DNA of 64,000 nt from assembly GCA_963815455.1 (NCBI GenBank), contig CAWFGO010000001.1, positions 1,184,001 to 1,248,000 on the forward strand. The letters run 5' to 3'. Source of the stretch: an uncultured Verrucomicrobiae bacterium (GTDB taxonomy: Bacteria > Verrucomicrobiota > Verrucomicrobiia > Chthoniobacterales > UBA10450). Positions 5,216 to 59,363 of this stretch are shown piece by piece. Each line of letters begins with the position of its first letter. The stretch's first letter is position 1. Made by a program: the position numbers and the translations under genes. The notes under the pieces are model-generated. The model searched no databases. It saw nothing but the letters and a program-made list of their open reading frames with translations, and was not told where the DNA came from.

Positions 5216-5359
5216 CCGCACGATTTTCTGACGCTATCCGGCCACTTCTTTGGTCGACCTGACTTCTGACCTCCTATCCGCCCTACTTCTTAAATCTTAC
5301 ATCATAAATCTGCCTCCCCTCCGCCCTCGCTATTTCGCGGATATCGGCTATAGTGCGTG

Positions 5360-5716
5360 ATGTCCAAATCTGCTGGTGCTTCTTTCTCACGCCGTGCGCC
5401 CGATAACATCACTGAAGAGCTCGTGGCCGTGCTTTCGTCCAAGGCCTCGTTTGAATTCAAGGCCTTGTTCGACGTGATCTTCCTGAACCTCAAGGAGCGG
5501 AATGCCGCCAGTGGGGGAGAAGAAATGCTGCGTTTGCGCACCTATGAGAAACTCCAGAGCCTCGTCCACCAGGGGGCCGTCACCAGAACGGTCAAGGGGA
5601 TCGTGAAGAACTACAAGGGTGTCGGCTCGCGCCTAGTCGCGCTGAGCGCCGAGATGGAAGTTCTGCGCAGCGAATGGAACCAGAAAGTTCTGGCCAAAGC
5701 CGCGGCCCGGGATTGA
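5360..5716 (+). CDS. Conserved small basic hypothetical protein (possible winged helix)
   Basis: Clean ORF with SGGEEMLRLRTYEKLQ; a paralog at about 9175-9444 supports coding status; TATAGT just upstream. Confidence 0.75.
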   Translation: MSKSAGASFSRRAPDNITEELVAVLSSKASFEFKALFDVIFLNLKERNAASGGEEMLRLRTYEKLQSLVHQGAVTRTVKGIVKNYKGVGSRLVALSAEMEVLRSEWNQKVLAKAAARD

Positions 5717-9174: not shown

Positions 9175-9444
9175 TCTCTTCGAATTCAAGCCCTTGTTCG
9201 ACATCATCCTGCTTAATCTTCGGGAACGAAACGCGGCCAGCGGGGGGAAGAAATGCTCCGGTTGCGCGTTTACGAAAAGCTTCAGGGCCTGGTCCATCAG
9301 GGCGCGGTCGATCGAACAGTAACGGGGATCACGAAAAAATATAAAGGCGTCGGTCCGCGCATGAACACCCTCAAAGCGCAAATGAAACTCTTGCGGGTCG
9401 AGTGGAGCAAGAAGCTTGCGGCCAAGGCCGCGGCGCGAACCTGA
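9175..9444 (+). pseudogene. 5'-truncated paralog of the 5360-5716 protein
   Basis: FEFKPLFDII...ERNAASGG/EEMLRLRVYEKLQGLVHQGAV aligns with the intact copy; in-frame stop upstream and an indel in a G-run. Confidence 0.75.
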
Positions 9445-9554
9445 TCTTTGTTCTCTGATCCGCCGAAGGACGGATTGACGAACTCGCGCCCGCTCGCTTC
9501 GGCCTCTCGGCTTTTCCCGTCAATGTCGCTCGCATCCCTTCGGCTCCATTCGCC

Positions 9555-9781
9555 GTGGCGAACTTCCGTCGTCTGATTTCTGTTCGAAGCATTCGGTAAA
9601 ATCGGGTACACGTTCGACCATTAAGCTAGGAGTCATATTATTCTCCGACACGCCTCTGGACGCCGGCTCACCGTTCCAAATCATCGTGAGTTGGCCAAAG
9701 GAACATTGCCCGCCCTGGTTTCGTGAAGCTGGTTTAACCAAAACACAATTCGCTGAATTACTTTTGATCGAGACAAACTAA
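9555..9781 (+). pseudogene. hicA: HicA toxin pseudogene
   Basis: Manual translation AFGKIGYTFDH*ARSHIILRHASGRRLTVPNHRELAKGTL.AL / REAGLTKTQFAELL; premature stop and frameshifts; absent from ORF track. Confidence 0.8.
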
Positions 9782-9849
9782 GACTTTCCAGAGTCACGAA
9801 TTCTGAATCCAAACACCTGACTACGCGCGTCCAAGCATTATAATTAGCC

Positions 9850-10260
9850 ATGGAAACGACTAGCTCACTCCCGACGCCGCCACCGCTCCCAGCCAGTGGC
9901 CCTCCGACCACCTCCATCACCTCTTCGAGCGTCCGCACCTGGTGCATTCTGTGTCACGCCAGCGCGTTGCTCGGCGTTTTTTTTCATTTCCCCGGGCACC
10001 TGCTCGGACCGTTCATTGTCTGGCTGGCCAAACGTGACGACTCGCCCGAGATCGATGCCCACGGCAAGGAATCGCTCAATTTCCAGATCTCGATGCTTAT
10101 CTACAACGTTGTCGCCGCAGTCTTTTGCCTGGTCCTGATCGGCTTCTTTTTCCTCGCCGTCCTTTGGGTGCTGAACGCGATATTCGTCATCGTCGCCTCC
10201 ATCCAGGCCAGCGATGGAAAATTTTACCGCTACCCGATCACCATTCGCTTTATTCAGTGA
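9850..10260 (+). CDS. DUF4870 domain membrane protein
   Basis: W..LCH.S.L, GPFIVWL, HGKESLNFQIS, YRYP.TIRFI; TATAAT 5 nt upstream of ATG. Confidence 0.92.
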   Translation: METTSSLPTPPPLPASGPPTTSITSSSVRTWCILCHASALLGVFFHFPGHLLGPFIVWLAKRDDSPEIDAHGKESLNFQISMLIYNVVAAVFCLVLIGFFFLAVLWVLNAIFVIVASIQASDGKFYRYPITIRFIQ

Positions 10261-10283
10261 GCTGCGGGGAAAGTAAGGCGGCG

Positions 10284-10586
10284 CATTCTGTCGTTTCCAT
10301 TTCAGCTTGTCAGCTTTTCCGCGTTTCAGAATTTCAACGTGTGACCATCCGGTTCATCCAATAAAGGGATTCTTAACCGCGGATTACGCGGATATCACAG
10401 ATAAAGAAAGGTTCGTGATTCCCATCATCTGCATCCGCGTAATCCGCGGTTGAAATCTTGTCCTTGTCGCAGCCTTGCGCCCATGCCGGCATTCATTCTG
10501 TCGTGTCCCATTTCAGTGTTTCAGCTGTCATCGTGTCAGCTTTTTGGAATTCTCGTTACCCAATGACGATCCGGTTCATCACCTGA
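10284..10586 (+). repeat. Two diverged copies of the DUF4870 3' end with TTTCAGC-like repeats, separated by an inverted repeat
   Basis: VTIRFIQ* at 10341-10364 and RYPMTIRFIT* at 10554-10586; IR AACCGCGGATTACGCGGAT 10375-10393 / 10433-10451. Confidence 0.8.
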
Positions 10587-10802
10587 TCGAACACGGTTTG
10601 GATAACAATTTTCGTCGCTCGATTTCCCTGAATCGTTGCCCGGCTTCCTAGTCACATCAAAGGCTCAGTTCCAATAGAACGCCGTGCCGTCGGCTGCTAC
10701 GCCGGAGATAGGAGCTGGAAGTTCGCAGCCGGCCACCCGTCCGGCCCTATCTTCTAACTCCAATCTCCCTTCCGGGGTTAAATCCTGCCTCTCTGTGTGC
10801 GT

Positions 10803-13800
10803 TCAAGGACTCGCTGGCGGTAATGCTGTGCCCGATCGTGATTTCACGAGCGAGATATCCGTGGCGTTGATTTCGCCGTTGATGGTCACATCGTTCGGGC
10901 AATTCGACTGGCTGAGAATGACACCGGACTGCGATTTCGTCTGACCAATATCTGAGGCGTTAACCAACCCATTCATGGTCGTGTCGCCGACCAGGAATCC
11001 CATCGTTATGTTCGCTGAGGGTAGCACCCCGCCGTTTACCCCGGTGAGATTTGTTCCGGTTACGGTCAGTGTCTGCTGGTCTGCTACTCCAGCGAGGTTC
11101 ACAAGCATGTCGTTGCCGCTGAAGCTCACCGAGCTCACACTTCCCACACCTGACGTAACCATCGCGTTTCCGCTCTGCATCGGCATGTCGAAGTGCAGCA
11201 CCATCGTGTAGTTGCCGCTCCCATTGCGCGGCTCCACTCCGGAGCCGTCCAATGGCATTGGTATGTCAAACGGTCCCGCAGCACCGTGGGTTAAACGCGA
11301 GGCTGCTCCCGTGAACGCCGGCGCTGCCGGTAGCGTCGCGCAGTCGCCAGGTCCCGCGGTGTTATTAATGAAGCCGGAGACCGTGCCACTGAATGGCGAG
11401 GACACTGGCCCTGAGGGCGGCTCCCCGCCCGTCGTATTCACGACCACCACAAAGGTATGTCCCGCGGGAACCGTGAACGAGTAACTGGCATGGTCGACGG
11501 TTGTCCCCAGACCGCTAATACCAGTGTCTCCAAGGTAGTTCGTGTCGAGCATGGTTGGATCGTACACTTGATCGTAGGCGACACTTTCGATGTCACCCGG
11601 ACCGCCGAGTGCGGCGTTGATCGTTACGGTGTAGCAACGAGCCGCGCCGCTCGTGTTAGTGAAGTTGAATGTTTTGTAGTAGTGCGTTCCCGCAAAACCG
11701 CCTCCAGGGCTGGCTTTACCGCCGCAGGGGCTTGGCCGTCCGTCCCGGCCAATACGATCGGCCTGCGTCGCATCACTCGTCATGAGCTGGCTGGGCGGAA
11801 TTTGTTGATCTGGACCGCCGGCACAGGTCGGGATGATGTACTGGATCGTCTTCATCCCGCCCGCGTAAGTCAGGTTGAGTGAAAGCATGATTTCCGTGCC
11901 GCAGACAAACGAGTCCGAGACGGAGATTTTGAACGGCGTCGCGTTCGTGCCGCTCTGGTCAATCGCCATGTCCGGATACGTCGAGCTACCCTGGTCGATC
12001 GTAACTCCAGCAGTCGATGTTGTGAGTGTCGCCTGGATCGCGGTCTCGGGCGCGCAACCGTTGTTCTGGACGCCGAGGTTTAGCTTCACGCATTCGCCCC
12101 GATTGACGATGCCGTTGTTGTTACCTAACGCATCGTCAATCGTAAATCCATTCGCCTCGAGCTTCGATGCGCCGGTCACGGTGAAGTTTTGGGTAACCAT
12201 CCCGCCGCCCGGCGGTGAAACCATGGCGGAGGCCGGCGATGCCGCCGTGCAGTTGCGATTCGCGTCCGCGGCAACGGCCGTATAGGTGCCGGCCGGAACC
12301 AGGATTGTGTACAGGCCGTTTACATCAGCCGCGCCCGCATAGCCATTGCTCAAAGTCACTGTCACCCCGGGAACCGGAGCACTTGTCGCGCTTGAAGTAA
12401 TTGTGCCTTTGACTATCCCCCACAGACCCGCGGCCGAAGCGCAGGATGGGAACTTGAAGCTGGCAATACGGGTCGACCAGTTGAAGCCGCCGTTGGCCTG
12501 CAAGTACTCGTTCGTATAATAGAAAGTGCATTGATCAATCGGATCGAGTGTCATGGCGGTGTAGTCGCCCCATCGGTTGCCAGCGCCTAACTGCGAGCCC
12601 AGGCCGGCTTTCATTTCTGTCTCCGCTCCCATCGTGCCAACCGGATCGTCAGCCAGACGCCCGGTCAGGTAGATGCCCGGTTTTATCGTCGGACTCGATT
12701 TGCTGTAGCCCAGCGCGATGTTGCCGTCTTTGTCCATCGCGGCCGATGGCATCCAACGGTAGCTGGTGTCCGGATCGAAAATGCCGGATTGAAAAAGTGT
12801 CGGTTGAGTCGTCGAGCTTCCCGCATTCCGGAATTCGAACCATTCGACCGCTCCGTGATTCACGTCGCTGCTGTCGCTCGGACCACTGACGACAAGCGAT
12901 TCCTGCGGCAATGCCTGTGTTCCGTTGTTGCGGTAAGCCAGGCGATACATGTAGTGGCCGCCCAAGTTGTCGAGATAGTCCGTCGGCACGGCTGGTGCAG
13001 GCTCGGGCACGCAGTCGCGACCATCATCGGTCGCGCCGCTGAGGCATGGTGCATTGCCGATGCCGCCCATGATGGGAGGGCCGGATGTCACGACCATCGT
13101 GGGAGCCGGGTCCCAGGTCACCGCCACTCGATGCGATGTGGTCAGCTCCGTAAGCGCGAAGTTAGGGCCGAGAAGAAACTCTGCCTCGCCCGCCGCCGGA
13201 GGAGTTAGACTATCGAGGTCGGCGGGCAGAAATCCGAATTCCGCTCCCAAGTCCGAGCTCTGCATCCGGGCCGGAAGACCATGGATCATTTTTTCCCGCT
13301 CGAAAACGTAGATGCGGCCGGTAGTGAACACGAGCCCCGCGCCAAAAACATGCGCGCTCATGTAGTAGCCATCCGGCCACACGCCGGTGTGCGGATAATC
13401 GACGAAGTTAACCGGATCCGTCTGGAAGTCGTAAAGGTAATACTCTCCGGTTGCGTCCGATGTTGCTGAGATGGCGAGGCACTGGTGCGAATAGTCGGTC
13501 TGGCCCGCGGCGACAACGAACTGCGAGAGAATCCAGCGGCCTGCGAGAATGTCGTAAGACACGACCGGGTCGCCGTCGTTATGCGATGCGCAGACGCCGC
13601 CCAGCGCCTGGAACAGCGTATTACCGGCCGCGGGTCCGTACTCAAGGGCCCCGGTGGTTTTGTTGAAGACCGCAAAGCTGGTGTTGTTCCATTGCACGAA
13701 TTGCGTCGAACCGACGCGGCCGTTTACATCCGGGGGATTACCAGAAGGGCTGAACCCACCCAGTCCCACACCGACGCCGTCGAAGTTGAGCCCGGTGGGA

Positions 13801-14246
13801 GTAGGCGCCGAGATCTGCTCTCCCGCCTTCGTTTGAGCATGTCCCCTTGGACCGCCACGCTTGGTCGGCGGTTTGGGCCGCCTCGGTTCCGGGACAGGAT
13901 TTTTCGTAACCGTTGCCGGATTGATCGGCGCGAGGTCGCGCAATTTCGCGCTGCGAACTGCTGCGACCGGGGCCAGAATCTGTGGCGGACCGCTGTATTT
14001 AACCGCGGCCGGCAGCAATGCCTGTGATCGGTCAGCCGGATTCTTGTCCAATTTAATTGCTCCCCTTGCCGCGCCGTAGCCTTGTGCGGAGGCGGGACCG
14101 CCGGCGAAGCGATGGGTCAGTGATTGTATGCCGAGGGGCGCAACCCCAAAGGCGAACAGAGCGAACATGCCTGCGACAAGGCAGAGAACAGACGCGGTAA
14201 GGATCCGCAAGTTGAAGAAAGCGCGGCGAAGATTTCTTGTTTTCAT
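10803..14246 (-). CDS. Large secreted protein (beta-rich N-terminal domain, carboxypeptidase-regulatory-like Ig domain, C-terminal dockerin-like domain)
   Basis: Signal/TM N-terminus, PPDVNG, RWGDY motifs, GDTTMNGLVNASD / DVTINGEINATD dockerin-like repeats. Confidence 0.82.
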   Translation of the reverse strand: MKTRNLRRAFFNLRILTASVLCLVAGMFALFAFGVAPLGIQSLTHRFAGGPASAQGYGAARGAIKLDKNPADRSQALLPAAVKYSGPPQILAPVAAVRSAKLRDLAPINPATVTKNPVPEPRRPKPPTKRGGPRGHAQTKAGEQISAPTPTGLNFDGVGVGLGGFSPSGNPPDVNGRVGSTQFVQWNNTSFAVFNKTTGALEYGPAAGNTLFQALGGVCASHNDGDPVVSYDILAGRWILSQFVVAAGQTDYSHQCLAISATSDATGEYYLYDFQTDPVNFVDYPHTGVWPDGYYMSAHVFGAGLVFTTGRIYVFEREKMIHGLPARMQSSDLGAEFGFLPADLDSLTPPAAGEAEFLLGPNFALTELTTSHRVAVTWDPAPTMVVTSGPPIMGGIGNAPCLSGATDDGRDCVPEPAPAVPTDYLDNLGGHYMYRLAYRNNGTQALPQESLVVSGPSDSSDVNHGAVEWFEFRNAGSSTTQPTLFQSGIFDPDTSYRWMPSAAMDKDGNIALGYSKSSPTIKPGIYLTGRLADDPVGTMGAETEMKAGLGSQLGAGNRWGDYTAMTLDPIDQCTFYYTNEYLQANGGFNWSTRIASFKFPSCASAAGLWGIVKGTITSSATSAPVPGVTVTLSNGYAGAADVNGLYTILVPAGTYTAVAADANRNCTAASPASAMVSPPGGGMVTQNFTVTGASKLEANGFTIDDALGNNNGIVNRGECVKLNLGVQNNGCAPETAIQATLTTSTAGVTIDQGSSTYPDMAIDQSGTNATPFKISVSDSFVCGTEIMLSLNLTYAGGMKTIQYIIPTCAGGPDQQIPPSQLMTSDATQADRIGRDGRPSPCGGKASPGGGFAGTHYYKTFNFTNTSGAARCYTVTINAALGGPGDIESVAYDQVYDPTMLDTNYLGDTGISGLGTTVDHASYSFTVPAGHTFVVVVNTTGGEPPSGPVSSPFSGTVSGFINNTAGPGDCATLPAAPAFTGAASRLTHGAAGPFDIPMPLDGSGVEPRNGSGNYTMVLHFDMPMQSGNAMVTSGVGSVSSVSFSGNDMLVNLAGVADQQTLTVTGTNLTGVNGGVLPSANITMGFLVGDTTMNGLVNASDIGQTKSQSGVILSQSNCPNDVTINGEINATDISLVKSRSGTALPPASP

Positions 14247-14439
14247 GGCGGATTATGTGATTCGTCGAAGGTGATCGTGTTCAAGCCATCGACCGGGCGT
14301 ATCTCGGGCGCATATTTTTTTGGGGCTAGCCGCTGAACCCAGCTTTTGTCTAAATTTCCACGTCCGGGGAGCACAGGCTGCCAGCCTGTTGGTTTCGGCT
14401 GCTAGCCGAAACGATCTTCATAATCTTGATCAACTTCCT

Positions 14440-14464
14440 TGCATCATAAGCGGCTTATGATGCA
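14440..14464. promoter_or_regulatory. Perfect palindrome, putative operator (second copy 14727-14741)
   Basis: TGCATCATAAGC-G-GCTTATGATGCA; core CATAAGC-N-GCTTATG repeated downstream of the small gene. Confidence 0.55.
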
Positions 14465-14523
14465 TCCTTGGCCCGAGGAATAAATTGTAGGGCAGGCGCT
14501 CCGCCCGCCGTCCCTGAGCGAAA

Positions 14524-14712
14524 ATGACAGAGGCACAAAAGAAGATTCACGAGTATCTCGTCGAGATCGGCCGCCGCGGAGGCGAGAACAGCCGGCGCGA
14601 GCTGACCAAATCCCACGCGCGCCAGATGGTCGCGATCCGCGAAATGAAGCGCGCCGCCTTGCGCGAGGGTAAACCCTGGCCACCCCGCGGTCGCAAACTC
14701 CAACTTTCCTAG
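14524..14712 (+). CDS. Small basic protein, possible DNA-binding/antitoxin-like
   Basis: 62 aa, YL.EIGRRGG.SRR motif, Arg/Lys-rich. Confidence 0.65.
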   Translation: MTEAQKKIHEYLVEIGRRGGENSRRELTKSHARQMVAIREMKRAALREGKPWPPRGRKLQLS

Positions 14713-15058
14713 TCAAAATCATCTATCATAAGCCGCTTATGTTGGATGGTTGCAGCCCGTGGTGATTTTCAGATTCGGGCCTTATCGCTCTTCGCCCTTT
14801 CACGCGCTCGCGCGGGCAGGTTTGTGTTCGCCACAGGACGAACTCGCCAGCCTGCCACGTCATCTCGTCACGCCGAAGCCCGTGCCAAGGCGGAAGCTTT
14901 AGCGACGGCGGGTGGCGAGTAGTGGGCCGCTGTCGCTCCAGACGCTTTTAAAGATAAGAGGTCGTTTCTTGACGGAATCGAATTAGGAACGCAGGAAAGC
15001 AGGAAATCGCTTAGCAGGATGTCCTGGGGTGGTACCCGAGGTGCTAGACAGATGAGGG

Positions 15059-15746
15059 ATGGCCAATTTTCTCGACACGACTGAAATCAGTTTCCGGATT
15101 GAGCGCCTCCTCAAGACTGCGGAAAAGCGCATCATCCTGATCAGCCCTTATCTCAAGCTCCGGCCCAGAGTGCGAGAGTTGATCGAGGATGCTGTGCGAC
15201 TGGGCGTTCGGGTACATGTGGTCTACGGAAAGAAGGAAATGTGCGATGGCGCCGATCAGCTCCGCGGAGTTGCGGGCGTGAAAGTCACATTTTGCAAAAA
15301 CGTCCACGCGAAATGCTACCTGAACGAAAAGGTCGGGATCATCACCAGCCTAAACCTGTACGACTTCAGCGAAGCGAAGAATCAGGAAATGGGCGTCTTC
15401 TTTGATCGCGAAGGCGACCCGGAGTTGTATCAAGAGGCCGCCAAGGAAGCCGACCGCATCATCCGAATGAGCGGAGGCAGCACCGGCTATCAGGAATCCG
15501 CTCTTGCCGCGGTCTCCCCGAAAGTCGAAGCGGCGAAGGAGTTACGGCAAGCTAACAACCGCCAAACTTGCGGCGAAGCTGGGAGTGCAAACGACGCAAT
15601 TATTCAACAAGCTGATCGGGCGCGGATATCTGGAACTGCGCGACGGAGGCAAGCACTACATCACCCCTGAGGGACGGGAAGTCGGCGGCGAATTTCGGAT
15701 GGGCAAAGGGCCGTATTTTCTTTGGCCCCCAGACCTCCAGGTCTGA
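15059..15746 (+). CDS. Phospholipase D-like (single HKD-type motif) protein with C-terminal winged-helix-like domain; frameshift near 15540
   Basis: LISPYLK, VHAKCYLNE, ITSLNL; continues in another frame as KLTTAKLAAKLG...GYL...HYITPEG. Confidence 0.8.
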
Positions 15747-15883
15747 CGTTGCCCTGGCAAAGGGGACTCCGTTTCTAGTTCACTCCGCGCTGGTGGAAGT
15801 TGACGACATCATAGGCTACCCCATCGGCAGAATCGACTTTCGGAGATTGTCGACCTTACGGGGTTCGTCTTTAATCGCGCTTA

Positions 15884-15960
15884 ATGGCGCAACGCGGTAC
15901 AATCGCGATCACTGATTTCGACTGGTACACTTTCTTGAGCCAGCGCCGCTCCTGGGCCGA
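15884..15960 (+). pseudogene. N-terminal stub of an HNH restriction-type endonuclease
   Basis: MAQRGTIAITDFDWYTFLSQR resembles the (V/I)TDxDWxxFL start of COG3440-like proteins, then truncated. Confidence 0.5.
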
Positions 15961-15994
15961 GAATGGGTGCGCCAGCCGCGAGATTGGGCCGAAT

Positions 15995-16291
15995 CTAATC
16001 TTCGCCACACGGTCTACGATCTGAGCGTTGGTGAAGGGGCGCGAGTATGGTCTTGATGCCTTGTTCGGCGGCGACCTGAAGCGCGCCCTCAAGCGCAAGT
16101 TGAATTTCGCGCGCGGCTTCTTCCCTCGTATCGCCATGTGCCATGATGCCGGGCCATTCGACGACTTGGACGATAAAGCATTCATCGCTTTTTCCGCGGA
16201 ATACCAAATGCGGATTTCGTAGTCGCGAGGGTCGGGTTGCGTCATTTCGTCCGGCGATGAGCTTGTCGAACAGCTTTTCTGTTTTGCCCAT
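15995..16291 (-). pseudogene. hicB: hicAB remnant: about 16-codon hicA-like stub joined to hicB (ATG 16245, one frameshift)
   Basis: YEIRIWYS..DECFIVQVVEWPGIMAHGDTREEAAREIQLAL is HicB-like; MGKTEKLFDKLIAG resembles HicA N-termini. Confidence 0.75.
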
Positions 16292-16446
16292 GCGCAGCGA
16301 ATTCTAACGGGACGCATTTGCTGACGGCAAGAATTTGATAGGGAATCAAACAAGTCCACGACGGCGAGGGCGCAATCGCCAGCACGCGAGTCGCCCGCAC
16401 AAGGCGGGCAGGCAGTGCGCTCCCCAGTCCGGGTCGTAGCTGATTT

Positions 16447-16707
16447 TTATGAGCGCGATACGACTACCTTTGCCCGATAGCCTAATCGGCGAAGGAATTC
16501 TTCGCAGTCTTGCCAGCGCAATCCGAACTCTGCGACATCAGCAAGGCCGAGTCGGCCAACGATTTCACTGAGAAGATCGACATCGGCTTCGTCGAAGTCG
16601 GCATCCATCATGGCGCTCTCCGCCCAATCAACCAGCTTCGCCTGACTGACTTTGCCGTGCAGGTACTCGGCGATCTTATCGGCAACGATCTGGCGGGTCG
16701 TTTTCAT
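16447..16707 (-). CDS. Small acidic helical hypothetical protein (putative antitoxin/immunity)
   Basis: 86 aa, LVDWAESAMMD...LGLADV..FGL.W.DC..FL..LGY; second gene of a tight pair. Confidence 0.75.
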   Translation of the reverse strand: MKTTRQIVADKIAEYLHGKVSQAKLVDWAESAMMDADFDEADVDLLSEIVGRLGLADVAEFGLRWQDCEEFLRRLGYRAKVVVSRS

Positions 16708-16719
16708 GCGTCAGAGATT

Positions 16720-16956
16720 TTACAGCTGTTTATGGCCCAAATCGACGGGAAATTTCTCGTGCACGCTGACAAGCCGGCCGCTGGCGTCATAAATCTCCTG
16801 TGCAAACCGAATCGTATTTTCGCTCGCGTCCACTTCTTTGATGTAACGAGCGCGTCCACCGGCGCGCCCGACGAATTCACGAATGTACCGTCGCCCGCCA
16901 TTGGGTAATTCCTCCCAGTGTTTGAACTTTCGCTCGTTCTGTTCGCGGGAAGCCAT
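16720..16956 (-). CDS. Small hypothetical protein (putative toxin)
   Basis: 78 aa from MASREQNERKF; GGRRY, ARY.KEVD, F.QEIYD, HEKFPVD.GH. Confidence 0.75.
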   Translation of the reverse strand: MASREQNERKFKHWEELPNGGRRYIREFVGRAGGRARYIKEVDASENTIRFAQEIYDASGRLVSVHEKFPVDLGHKQL

Positions 16957-17082
16957 TGCGCGGAGCATACCAAACGTTCTCCAATCTGAGGGGAAAAGTT
17001 TGCGACGCGAGGGCGCAATCCCCAACACGCGAGACGCATGCGCTCCCCAGACCAAGATGCGACCGGTCGGTCGCGGGCGGAC

Positions 17083-17230
17083 TTGACAGCGCCGAGGTCG
17101 CCGGGCCAAATGGCGGCGGGATGAAATTTATCACACGCCGGTTCGCGGCCGCGCCGGAAGGAACCGCCGTTTATTTTTCATTCAAATTTTCGCGACGCTC
17201 GGGTTCGCTGTTCTTTACTCGACGCTGGTT
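17083..17230 (+). pseudogene. Diverged duplicate of the promoter region and first 36 codons of the POT transporter
   Basis: MKFITRRFAAAPEGTAV-FFIQIFATLGFAVLYSTLV versus MNFLKRRFSAAPEGTAVLFFIQIFATLGFAVLYSTLV. Confidence 0.85.
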
Positions 17231-17434
17231 CGGTTTTCACCAAAACCGAATCGCCGGCTTCCCTAGACCAACTCGCAACGCTCGCGGCCTCCCGCCGTAA
17301 AGTTCGCGCCCTGCGAACCGCTCTGCGCGACGAAGCATTTGCTGGTAGCCGGGAAACTAGTACGTGGCTTCGGGGTGTGGTTGATCCCGCGAAATCTTGA
17401 CTTCCGGGGAGTCGAAGAGCCAAATGTCACTTAG

Positions 17435-26238: not shown

Positions 26239-28411
26239 TTAGTTCGCCGCTGGTTCGAGACCGCGGCGTTTTAGCAACGGCTCAATATACGGATCGCGCC
26301 CAACGAAATTCTTAAACAAGCCCAGGGCATCAGCCGATCCGCCGCGGGACAAGAGCATCGAGCGGAAGCGGTCGCCGTTCTCGCGCTTGAGGCCGCCGTG
26401 TTCCTTGATCCATTCAACCGTGTCGGCATCGAGCACTTCGCTCCAGATGTAGGAGTAGTAACCAGCCGAATATCCGCCGGCGAATGCGTGCGAGAAATAC
26501 GGACTCCGATAACGGGGCGGGACCGGTGCGAAATCGACCCCGGCCTTGTGCAACGCTTCCGCCTCGAACGCCATCGCGTCCTTGGGAATCTCGGCGGGAC
26601 TCAGTTGGTGCCAGGCCTGATCGAGCAACGCCGCGGCCAGATACTCGCTAGTCGCATAACCCTGATTGAACTTTTCCGAGGCCTCGACTTTGTCCACCAA
26701 CGCCTGCGGAATCGGTTCGCCGGTCTTATAATGTTTGGCGTAATTCTTCAGCACCTCCGGCCAGTTCGCCCACATCTCGTTCACTTGCGACGGATACTCG
26801 ACGAAATCCCGCGGCACGCTGGTCCCGGCGAACCGCGGATATTTCACGTTGGAAAACATTCCGTGCAACGCATGACCGAATTCGTGAAAAGCGGTGCGCA
26901 CTTCATCATGCGTCAGCAACGTCGGCTCGCCTTTCGGCGGTTTCGGGATGTTGAGATGATTCGCCACCACCGGTTTCGTCCCGAACAATCCGCTTTGCGG
27001 GACGTAAGCGTTCATCCAGGCTCCCCCGCGCTTGGAAGGACGCGCGTAATAATCGGCAATGAAAAGCGCCAGCGGTTTGCCATCCGCGTCGAAAACTTCG
27101 AATACGCGGACTTCAGGAAGATAAACCGGGAGATCGTGTCGCTCCTTGAAGGTAAGTCCGTAAAGTTTTCCAGCGGCAAAAAAGACGCCGTCGATCAGGA
27201 CGTGGTTCATTTCGTAATACGGCCGCAGTTCCGATTCATCGAACGTCGTACTTCGCCTTGCGGACTTTCTCGGAATAAAAATTCCAATCCCACGAGGCGA
27301 TTTGAAATCCGCCTTTTTCTTCATCGACAATCTTCTGCATGTCGGCCGCTTCGCGGCGGGCATTGCCGACTGCGGGAGGCGCCAGTTCAGCCAGGAGTTT
27401 GTTTACGGTCGGAACGTCTTTCGCAGTCTGATCCTCGAGTTGATAGGCAGCCCAACTTGCATATCCGAGCAATTTCGCCTTTTCGGCCCGAAGCTGGGCG
27501 GTGTGAATCACAATGTTGCGGGTATCGAACTCGCCGCCTTTGCTATTGCGCGACAACGACGTTTGCATGATGCGTTCGCGCAACGGGCGGTTCTGCAACG
27601 ATCCCAGTAGCGGCTGGCCGGTCGTGTTTTGGAGCTGGATGACGAACTTGCCTTCCTTTTTTTCGTCCTTCGCCGCTGCAATTGTCCCCGCCATCTGGCT
27701 ATCCGATAGCCCGGCCAGATCTTCCTTCTTATCAACCACAACCGACGACGCGTTCTTTTCTTTCAACACATCCTGGGAAAACTGGGTTTGCAGCGTGGCC
27801 AGCTCGGCATTCATTTTCTTAAGCTTTTCCTTGTCCGGATCGGACAACTTGGCGCCGGCCCGCACAAAATCCTTGTAGTAACGCTCGAGCAGATAACTCG
27901 ATTCGGGATCGAGCCCGAGTTTGTCGCGATTGTCATAAACTTCCTGGAGCCGGGCAAAAAGTTTGCTGTTGAGAAAAATCGCATCGTTATGCGCGGAAAG
28001 CTTCGGAGCCATTTCGGCCTCGATCTTCTGCATCGCCGGATTGGTGTTGCACGCGTTCAGGTTCGAGAAGGTTCGTTCCGCCCGGTCGAGCAGCTGCCCC
28101 GTTTTTTCCAGAGCGACGACGGTGTTATCGAACGTGGGCTTTTCCGCGCTGGAGGCGATCCCCTCGACTTCTTTGAGCTGCTCGCGCATCCCGGCTTCCA
28201 TCGCCGGGACGAAATGCTTGTCCTTGATCTTGTCGAACGGCGGGAATTGATACGGCAACGCGCTCTCGGTCATGAGCGGATTGCCGGCAGTCGCGGCGGA
28301 TGAGGAATGTTTCACGGATGCTTTAGGCGCAGCATGAGAAGTAATCGCGATTTGCGTTAGCGCCAGTGCCATGGAGGCGGCGAACAATTTGGAACGGACG
28401 AGGTAATGCAT
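26239..28411 (-). CDS. dcp: M3 family peptidyl-dipeptidase Dcp (frameshift near 27240)
   Basis: PPFDKI, K.GGAWM, FHEFGHALH, DFVEYPSQ, GYSAGYYSY.WSEV. Confidence 0.92.
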
Positions 28412-55791: not shown

Positions 55792-55830
55792 TTACTCGTG
55801 CTCGTAATCGTAATCGTGCTCGTAATCGAT
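55792..55830. repeat. GATTAC/GAGCAC hexamer array at the gene 3' end, encodes DYEHDYDYEHE
   Basis: Inverted relative to 56235-56268. Confidence 0.85.
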
Positions 55831-56220
55831 CCCTGCTTGTTCTCCTTCCCGCACTCGTCCAGCGCGATCGGAAAATCGGCGCAACAATCCGACAAGCATC
55901 TCAACGATGCGAACCAGCTGCTCCTTCCGTTCGTTGGCAATCTTTTGCTTGGCGAGTTTTCGCGCCACCAAGACATCGAGACGCGCCGCGCATTCGACTG
56001 CCGAGCCACGCGCGATTTCGAAGAACCGGGAACGATCGGCCGCAGAAAATTTGCCGTTCCCCTCGGCGATATTCAGCGGCACGCTGGTCGAGGCCCGGTC
56101 GAGCTGGTCTTTCGCGGCCGCCTTCTCGGTGATTGTTTTCAAAAAGTCACCCACCCATCCACAGAAGTCGATCGCTTGGACGTAAACGTCCAGTTTCTCG
56201 TGATCAAAGTGGATTTTCAT
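55792..56220 (-). CDS. Four-helix bundle protein (23S rRNA IVP/Avd-like, TIGR02436)
   Basis: HEKLDVY, DQLDRAS.SV.LNIAEG.G, F..IARGS..E. Confidence 0.93.
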   Translation of the reverse strand: MKIHFDHEKLDVYVQAIDFCGWVGDFLKTITEKAAAKDQLDRASTSVPLNIAEGNGKFSAADRSRFFEIARGSAVECAARLDVLVARKLAKQKIANERKEQLVRIVEMLVGLLRRFSDRAGRVREGEQAGIDYEHDYDYEHE

Positions 56221-56268: not shown

Positions 56269-57271
56269 CTATTTGCCGAGCATTTCCAGCATTTCCACGC
56301 AGCGATTGCTGTAGCCCCATTCGTTGTCGTACCACCCCACGATCTTGGCGAACCGGTTCCCAAGTGTGATGGTCAGTTTGCTGTCGAAAATGCACGAGTG
56401 CGGGTTGCCTACGATGTCCTGCGAAACCAGCGGCTCGTCGCTGAATTCGAGCACGCCTTTGTAACTCTTGTCCGCGGCGGCCTCTTTGAATGCGGCGTTA
56501 ATCGCATCCACCGAGGCATCCTTCTCCAGGACCACGGTGAAATCTGTGACCGAACCGTCCGGCGTGGGGACGCGGAAGGCGCCGCCGTTCAGTTTTCCCT
56601 TTAGAGCGGGAATCACTTCACCGATCGCTTTGGCCGCGCCGGTGCTGGATGGAATGATGCTGACTCGCCGCCGCCCGGGCCCGTCGCAAATCCTCGTGGG
56701 GCAGATCGAGAATCCGTTGATCGTTGGTATAACTGTGGATCGTGCTCATGAACCCGTGGGCGATACCGAACTTGTCATTCATCACTTTGGCCAACGGCGC
56801 GAGGCAATTCGTCGTGCAACTGGCGTTGGAAACGATCGTGTGCTTGGCCGGATCGTAGACGTCGTCATTAATCCCGACGCAAATCGTGGCGTCGGGGTTT
56901 TTCGCCGGCGCGGAGATCAGGACCCGTTTCGCGCCGCCTTTGCTGATATGCAGCTCGGCTTTGTCGCGACTGGTGAAAAATCCGGTCGATTCGAGGACAA
57001 CATCGACATCGAGCTTTTTCCACGGGAGATTTCCCGGGTCGCGCTCTTTGAAGATTCTGATCTTATGGCCGCGCACGATGATGTTTTCATCGTCGTAACC
57101 GATTTCACCGTCGAATTTGCCGTGGACCGAGTCCCACTTGAGCAAGTGGGCCAGCGTATGCGTGTCGGTTAGATCGTTAATGCTCCGGACACGCTCGACT
57201 TGTTTCTGTGACATGGCGCGCAGGACATTGCGCCCGATGCGGCCGAAGCCGTTGATTGCGAAGTTTGCCAT
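56269..57271 (-). CDS. gap: Glyceraldehyde-3-phosphate dehydrogenase (frameshift near 56660)
   Basis: [35 protein letters not shown]. Confidence 0.97.
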
Positions 57272-58314: not shown

Positions 58315-59363
58315 CTAGACCGCGGGTTGCTGCTGGGTGAGGCAATGGAATGTGCCGAGGCCCCAGATCAATTCACGGCAATCGATGCCGATGACGCGGC
58401 GATTGGGAAATAGCTCGCGCAGGATCGACAACGCTTTTTCGTCGGCGGGATCGGCGAAAGTCGGGACGAGCACACAGGTGTTTGCGATATAGAAATTGGC
58501 GTAGCTGGCGGGGAGATGCAGGCCTTCACGCACAGTCTGCTTCGGCATCGGCATGGTGACGATGTCGATGTTGCGACCACCAATCTTCATATCGCGCAGC
58601 CGGGCGAGATTTTCCTGGAGCGGCTCGAAATTTTCGTTGTCGCGATCTTCTTCGATCACGGTGACGACCTTTGTTCTCCGAGACAAAACGCGCGAGATCG
58701 TCGATGTGCCCGTCGGTGTCGTCGCCGACGATCCCGTCGCCAAGCCAGAGAATTTCGCGAACTCCGAGAAAATCGCGGAGACGCTGTTCGATCTGGCTCG
58801 CGGGAAAGATTCGGGTTCCGATTTTTGTTGAGCAAACACGATTCGCTGGTGAGCAATGCGCCCGAGCCGTTCACGTCGATCGAGCCGCCTTCCAGAATCA
58901 TCCGCGGATAAAACACCGGCAGTCTTAGGAGCTCGGCCACCCGGGTGGGCACGACTTCATCGAGATCGAATGGCGGATACTTGTTGCCCCAGGCGTTATA
59001 ATCCCAATCGACAATCGCAAGCTTTGGATCGACATCACGGGTAAGAAAAATCGGGCCGTGATCGCGGCACCACGGCTCGTTTGTTGGAATTTCGTAGTAG
59101 GTAATGCATTCCTGGTGCGGCAACGAATCCAGGACCGCTCGCGCTTCAGCTTCGTGGGCACCGTTGACGACATTGATGCATACCGGCTCCGATTCGGTCA
59201 GGGCCGCGACCAACTCGTATAGCGTCGGCAGCACGCGATCGAACGAATCGGGAAAACTGATTCCTTCGCGGCGCGGCCAGGAGAGCCAGGTGGCGGCGTG
59301 CGGCTCCCATTCGGCCGGCATTCGATAGCCGAGCTGGGCGGGAGTTTCAGAATATTGAGGCAT
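58315..59363 (-). CDS. aguA: Agmatine deiminase family protein (frameshift near 58800)
   Basis: MPAEWEPH, W.RDHGP, LEGGSID, PASYANFY, G.FHC.TQQ.P. Confidence 0.92.

Follow-up and report, generated by a model that had tools for sequence, protein, structure and literature searches.

The window, that is, the whole stretch of DNA that was analyzed, comprises 64,000 nucleotides of contig C1 in genome G000 (G000:C1:1184001-1248000); below, G-numbers designate genomes, C-numbers contigs and L-numbers homologous loci. A gene for a DUF4870 membrane protein of 136 aa (PF09685, E=1.6e-37), the likely insertion target, is located at positions 9850-10260 on the forward strand, and its body is at least 87% identical in DNA to 37 other loci. 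Three 3' ends of this gene, all on the forward strand, were reported in the first-pass annotation and could be confirmed: the live end, which reads RYPITIRFIQ* (with its last 7 codons and stop at 10237-10260), and two displaced ends, copy 2 (VTIRFIQ*, 10341-10364) and copy 3 (RYPMTIRFIT*, 10554-10586). Copy 2 differs from the live end at 8 of 24 nucleotides, 6 of them in third positions (6 synonymous codon changes and 1 that is not), and copy 3 at 11 of 33, with 9 in third positions (7 synonymous changes and 2 that are not; stop codons were counted as synonymous in both comparisons). Third positions therefore take 15 of the 19 changes, in agreement with what had been noted earlier, and the identity to the live end is ~67%. 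The two extra ends had tail scores of 43 and 32, and a match of at least 32 occurred in none of 5000 first-order Markov simulations of the 540 nt downstream. The stack probably continues on the same strand to ~10768 with an eroded fourth end of 8 nt (...Q*, 10670-10677) and the module behind it. The score of this end together with its tag was reached in 0 of 1000 shuffles, most of it coming from the tag, with the 8-nt end being weak alone. An inverted gene-end match near 10595-10620 was also weak (its score was reached by 4 of 1000 shuffles). A 79-codon ORF ending at copy 2 was considered and found to be without support.

The DNA behind the live stop is a mosaic. When it was compared with 176 other DUF4870 loci, all segments of 10261-10768 except ~10461-10476 matched DNA behind DUF4870 ends. 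Directly behind the live end lies the body of module M1 with an internal deletion (10261-10340, forward strand), in which a tag is followed by a pyrimidine-rich repeat arm of TTTCAG type; arms of this kind flank four-helix-bundle genes in G000, one of which, on C5, lies between a TTTCAG pair. Copy 2 is linked to the hairpin after it, module M2 (10365-10460), with 19-bp perfect inverted arms (10375-10393 and 10433-10451). This end is live in L116/L200 and displaced in L032, L033 and L051, and 10342-10460 matches the downstream DNA of the same loci, the hairpin interior being inverted relative to L032, L051 and L116. The right half of an earlier M1 insertion, including its arm-to-gene-end junction (10477-10553, forward strand), is common to L191 (88% over 103 nt) and L034 (84% over 104 nt); this match spans 10477-10580 and stops just before the last codon of copy 3. 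It is followed on the forward strand by two further remnants seen behind DUF4870 ends elsewhere (10587-10669; 10587-10617 resembles L035, and 10612-10669 resembles L032 and L035) and by module M5, which follows the fourth end within 10670-10768, is 82-84% identical to L003/L196 and over 10682-10768 matches G022, where it lies directly 3' of the live stop. The tag behind the live end also occurs in L032, L034 and L191; the same allele and tag are live in L034/L191 and displaced in L032, which has the module order of the window plus one extra module in front. Where a segment carrier has a genus label, this is g47 or g22, and the window belongs to g1; the segments thus recur behind DUF4870 ends across genera of Chthoniobacterales. 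The inserts between the ends in the window are 104 and 222 nt long, with no gene between the copies, and the duplications measure 23 and 34 nt. A block shared between 10284 and 10494 and a 19-bp perfect inverted repeat, both pointed out in the first-pass annotation, are indeed present; the TTTCAG blocks and the inverted repeat represent genome-wide repeat families, with the hairpin motif matched by 23 arms. The region folds better than shuffles (z -3.2) because of the hairpin. No known RNA family was detected in 9400-11000 at E<=0.1, and a promoter/terminator scan remained near shuffle level.

Several other features were observed in the window. The first ~37 codons of a POT/PTR2 transporter gene are present a second time, in recoded and frameshifted form, at 17121-17231, 314 nt upstream of the live start (17435), a mirror case of the displaced ends. 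The junction of this copy is also found in L042 (75% over 322 nt), where several starts are stacked; two are present in L125. In L035 the POT/PTR2 gene follows within 370 nt of DUF4870, so that 10587-17434 may form a variable zone with displaced ends on one side and a displaced start on the other. For two small ORFs that are related to each other and lack a Pfam match (5357-5716 and 9253-9444), a homolog was seen in L050, where it lies between displaced ends, and in L002, L039, L044 and L126, where it is located upstream of DUF4870. A four-helix-bundle gene (55795-56220, reverse strand) is located between gap and pgk with its own inverted periodic arms, and no displaced gap end was seen there. 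Across G000, most of 20 four-helix-bundle/GxxExxY sites are flanked by inverted low-complexity arms whose 6-9 nt unit differs by site, and units of these types are also found immediately ahead of displaced DUF4870 ends in relatives. The genes for peptidase M3 (26242-28411), GAPDH (56272-57271) and probably an agmatine-deiminase-like protein (58318-58828) are each split in two, which suggests indel errors of the assembly.

The first-pass annotation regarded the live end as the native one, but our comparisons point to it as the incomer. The 25 closest loci are mostly 85-96% identical to the window in windows of the gene body, and 71-80% identical in the last 45 nt, except L034/L191 (91%), which are the two loci sharing the window's downstream DNA; copies 2 and 3 carry mostly majority codons of the DUF4870 family. 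Therefore, the live end, a minority allele and the newest of the stack, came with its tag. Overall, the gene body is no nearer to L034/L191 than to other members of the clade; the closeness is confined to the last 45 nt, and the exchanged tract was therefore short. Linkage of allele and tag is also seen beyond the window: the last three codons agreed in 0.89/0.69/0.98 of 61 tag-sharing clade pairs as compared with 0.44/0.28/0.44 of 1452 other pairs (the pairs are non-independent), and the three ends of the window differ in their tags, each of which goes with its own allele at other loci. A single M1 arm-to-end junction precedes three different old tags, with similarity stopping just before the last codon. 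This is expected if a displaced copy is a hybrid, with a 5' part from the donor and a 3' part from the recipient. Finally, synonymous divergence among 38 clade loci rises from 0.16-0.20 in the body (~0.18) through 0.25 and 0.34 to 0.46 in the last 11 codons, and is flat at 0.38-0.41 in 40 sampled other loci. Because the clade was set by similarity of the body, the body figure is biased downward; the last value, however, is also above the family-wide level.

We gathered 190 DUF4870 loci, of which 14 had no locatable end and 14 were duplicates; among the 162 left, 140 had at least 400 nt of downstream DNA. One to three extra stop-anchored ends were found in 17 of these 140 loci (the window included, and a few paralogs in the denominator). 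Twenty further regions picked by pattern scans added seven stacked loci; being selected, they give no frequency, and L197, which has no intact gene, was dropped from later counts. Unpublished genomes G003 and G008 served as background rows only, and no claim depends on them. In the same-genus genome G001, only the paralog was found. The displaced copies, 31 in number and up to 3 per locus, fall into 20 junction groups. The shortest has 22 nt and the longest at least 240 nt, with 19 copies in the range of 28-45 nt; post-insertion erosion may have inflated this spread. By our own reading, older copies are more decayed in 5 of 7 multi-copy stacks, but not in the window; truncated older modules suggest later deletions. 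The first gene downstream of DUF4870 is highly variable, and no integrase, four-helix-bundle or GxxExxY gene was among 108 such first downstream genes scanned. Duplicated ends are separated by repeat-rich spacers of 80-450 nt or by kilobase inserts with toxin-antitoxin (TA) pairs, a methyltransferase gene or a thioredoxin-like gene. The cargo anticipated in the first-pass annotation was thus found in part: TA, GxxExxY and other cargo does occur between duplicated gene ends, but no four-helix-bundle or GxxExxY gene lies between duplicated DUF4870 ends, where only repeat arms remain, of the kind that flanks such genes elsewhere in G000.

At the joins, the gene end is duplicated, not deleted. Of the 21 copies of 45 nt or less, 14 (several of them of common ancestry) are preceded by a periodic repeat arm; in 543 background windows the frequency was 7.4%, and none of the 10 longer copies has such an arm. 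Short displaced ends cluster at 28-42 nt. In 23 loci, the offsets of the first displaced copy occupy all three frames; the copies are therefore not alternative coding ends, and frameshift or read-through into an alternative C-terminus was rejected. Between the live end and the nearest displaced copy (23 pairs), we counted 70 synonymous and 14 non-synonymous codon changes, the ratio for random single changes being 13:41, although part of this excess is built in, as the copies were found by peptide match, which favors synonymous differences. Stacked loci are also recoded more strongly, with 4.1 synonymous differences per 7 codons versus 2.2-2.6 in ordinary orthologs, and 3 of 23 live ends at stacked loci, but 0 of 108 at unstacked ones, depart from the consensus in all four TIRF codons. 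Avoidance of restriction sites was rejected as a cause of recoding: GATC (1.03) and CCGG (1.19) are not under-represented.

A scan of last codons against controls, proposed in the first-pass annotation, revealed an enrichment in G000. Among 2814 genes of our own gene calls, 9 are followed within 600 nt by a non-coding duplicate of their own end (mean of 0.07 and maximum of 1 in 30 permutation rounds) and 18 within 1500 nt (mean 0.37, maximum 1); tandem paralogs, which made up 2 of 11 matches in an earlier pass, were excluded from these figures. On inspection, one of the 18 was a repeat, which we take to resemble an integron attC site, and two represented one event between convergent genes, leaving 16 loci. 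Besides DUF4870, there are 15 further loci, including nuoK, rpsG, rplK, pyrG and secA (these names, as well as fabG and nupC, are our own reading of the translations, and only nuoK was confirmed by HMM). Four of the 18 are near-identical tandem units with the same downstream DNA (fabG, C2:563690, C2:221919 and C1:1098793), a pattern of local duplication; in the remaining duplicates, the copies are recoded and lie on either side of TA-like pairs, a GxxExxY gene or hairpins. Of the 18, just one has a periodic arm in front, namely the repeat that is not a gene end, and the repeat-arm rule is therefore local. In rpsG and nuoK, the displaced copy is directly before the start of the next gene. The companion scan of first codons (score of at least 36) yielded 9 matches over a null of 0.05, but most matches are tandem paralogs by inspection and three resemble displaced starts. 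At C3:282802-283964, two convergent genes enclose a single insert that has duplicated the ends of both as well as the intervening hairpin, and at C2:708078-710833 a tyrosine recombinase match lies near a repeated element that presumably resembles integron attC sites.

For nuoK, we gathered 30 loci and parsed 27 for spacers and 22 for displaced ends. Spacers longer than 500 nt were found in 8 of 27 loci, GxxExxY genes in two loci by HMM and in four more by eye, and a displaced nuoK end in 2 of 22 loci, each shortly after a right arm. The GxxExxY protein presumably has a nuclease fold. In G000, the GxxExxY gene lies between nuoK ends whose 17 codons show 9 changes, all of them synonymous, and the displaced copy abuts the nuoL start. 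The final five codons of the insert resemble the nuoL start of a same-genus genome, unlike the host nuoL start, which points to a chromosomal fragment of a relative that was illegitimately joined. In 19 of 21 comparisons, the displaced nuoK copy was less ortholog-like than the live one, the opposite of DUF4870, and this result fits end displacement only if the crossover position varies. The GxxExxY cassette between the nuoK copies (G000:C1:134356-134902, L211) is frameshifted, which may reflect long-read error or decay, and same-genus G001 has the arms at nuoK without the gene.

Taken together, we think it probable that the extra DUF4870 ends are non-functional relics of serial end displacement, driven by crossovers in the last codons with DNA of relatives. 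The proposal of the first-pass annotation, serial insertions that supply a replacement terminus, is supported by modules and junctions common to other genomes, by the genome-wide excess over permuted controls and by cargo between duplicated ends. A short piece of a relative's chromosome, consisting of the last ~8-25 codons of the same gene and whatever follows them (hairpin repeats, cassette arms, TA genes), would recombine into the host gene within those codons. The host protein would stay intact, with the stop and downstream DNA of the donor, and the old stop and its downstream DNA would end up behind the insert. The first event would involve one illegitimate join: the fragment might circularize and then undergo a single crossover, or it might be captured through one-sided homology. 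Afterwards, the module between two gene-end copies could enter the allele of any relative by ordinary short crossovers, regardless of downstream DNA, with new modules landing next to the gene and old ones eroding. Tracts of 25-45 nt at ~67% identity are a poor substrate for ordinary homologous recombination; therefore, the crossovers would have used closer alleles or another pathway. The heavy recoding may be due to survivor bias, identical repeats being deleted, or, as a rival idea, to escape from a cutter. The uptake route, a circular versus linear donor, the order of events and the cause of the recoding are what we infer from these patterns; ComEC and DprA are present in G000 and were also matched in 10-11 of 14 control genomes. 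Further points speak against end displacement: the clustering at 28-42 nt together with the arm before 14 of 21 short copies is a regularity unpredicted by plain recombination, and 4 of the 18 genome-wide matches look as if they came from local duplication.

Several known systems share features with this arrangement. Free-standing homing endonuclease ORFs with a replacement C-terminus occur in fungal mitochondria. Copies of atp9 of 47-54 bp lie beside a LAGLIDADG ORF (PMC6506933); the short gene-end copy beside a mobile insert is alike, but the DUF4870 stack has no nuclease gene and there are many unrelated targets. Displacement of Rhs C-termini, for which a circle-based route was proposed, not shown (Jackson et al. 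2009, PMC2935791), likewise leaves variable-length gene fragments in strings behind an intact gene. However, each Rhs fragment has a different C-terminal domain of the rhs gene, whereas in DUF4870 the peptide is conserved and only synonymously recoded; here ordinary genes for membrane proteins and housekeeping functions are affected, most fragments comprise 8-15 codons, and it is the DNA behind the stop that varies, not a toxin domain. In insertion with long target duplication (Furuta et al. 2010, PMC2853133), an insert without a mobility gene is also located between variable-length direct copies of the target. This class, found mostly in competent species, was defined for restriction-modification genes, inserts under 20 kb and repeats >30 bp, with left-right identity of at least 93% in the tabulated cases examined, whereas the window has short, ~67% identical, serial copies and no restriction-modification cargo. 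Prophage e14 in E. coli icd has a mostly synonymous replacement 3' end with the old end, icdC, stranded behind, as here, but it is a single 165-bp duplication beside an integrase-bearing prophage (PMC11148124). Homology-facilitated illegitimate recombination combines one homologous anchor with one illegitimate join, which is also what the 20 junction groups among 31 copies and the nuoK junction look like. In E. coli, 56 of 60 selected clones had partial duplications (109-950 bp in the 14 sequenced), attributed to recircularized incoming DNA, and sequential displacement was proposed for T6SS immunity arrays; on the other hand, the classical form deletes recipient DNA with no duplication, and the DUF4870 tracts are shorter, natural and stacked (PMC3240628, PMC5361080). 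End displacement thus works like Rhs tip displacement and e14/icdC but falls outside both classes as defined, and it differs from long target duplication in cargo and identity. In the literature searched, whose coverage was limited, the layout was undescribed for these cassettes or for the DUF4870 family. The DUF4870 locus adds population evidence, i.e., shared modules, their order, hybrid ends and the gradient.

It is also possible, but unlikely, that an element-encoded enzyme acts in trans. In one version, the consensus gene end would be cut by a nuclease and the break repaired from a donor, so that the module is copied in (a form of homing in which recoding protects the element from its own enzyme); in the other, an HUH/REP-associated transposase would introduce a nick at the hairpin arm, which it then links to the gene end. 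The stronger recoding of stacked ends, the arm abutted by 14 of 21 short copies, the GxxExxY gene between the nuoK ends and the profile matches in G000 (16 Y1_Tnp, 20 four-helix-bundle and 3 GxxExxY) would fit such an enzyme. However, no such gene is located between the DUF4870 ends of the window or among the 108 first downstream genes, the arm precedes just one genome-wide duplicate, the targets are unrelated genes, which is not expected of one specific cutter, and 1 of 21 four-helix-bundle/GxxExxY cassettes (that at nuoK, at the threshold used) is an insert between duplicated ends. Quite improbable, too, is local tandem duplication (slippage or template switch at a hairpin), which would produce identical copies whose live end was recoded later by double-crossover allele swaps via the shared right-hand repeats. 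It would explain the four near-perfect tandem units listed above and G022, which repeats its own tag ahead of its displaced end, but neither the three different allele-tied tags of the window, nor the single junction ahead of three different tags, nor the foreign nuoL-start-like piece in the nuoK insert.

Integrase-driven islands that target the gene end, like e14 at icd, would leave attL/attR remnants with the same geometry and a synonymous replacement end (PMC11148124), and G000 does have 7 tyrosine recombinase matches over the cut-off outside the window. Yet there is no integrase or transposase among the called genes of the window, the nearest tyrosine recombinase match is ~300 kb away, none was seen in the 108 downstream neighbors and the copy lengths vary more than tenfold, so that this origin has very little chance of being correct. 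Even less credible is an assembly chimera of strains, the objection raised in the first-pass annotation. The assembly is of metagenome type and several genes have apparent frameshifts (the split peptidase M3 and GAPDH), but the same junctions recur in separately assembled records, ~67% identity of the copies is far below strain level and contamination of the genome is 0.37%. Priming by a reverse transcriptase was rejected, with no RVT_1 match to the query used in this 90%-complete genome.

The spread of integrase-less single-gene cassettes, TA modules and hairpin repeats between genomes has so far been poorly explained. The DUF4870 locus keeps several rounds of insertion in order, with modules common to genera and a measurable recombination gradient in the target, and a specific route can now be tested, in which a 25-45 nt copy of a conserved gene end is the landing pad. 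It also carries a warning that the last codons of conserved genes may have a history apart from that of the gene body. A broader, speculative and rather doubtful proposal is that in these bacteria gene ends serve generally as attachment sites that need no integrase: once the last ~10 codons of a gene lie on both sides of a module, it would home into that gene across genera, build polar arrays and be selected to recode its end (against deletion or re-cutting), possibly aided in trans by proteins of the repeat-armed cassettes (GxxExxY, four-helix bundle, Y1 transposase). If true, TA modules, hairpin repeats and armed single-gene cassettes would have an undescribed route of mobility, and gene termini would be subject to fast synonymous change from this source.
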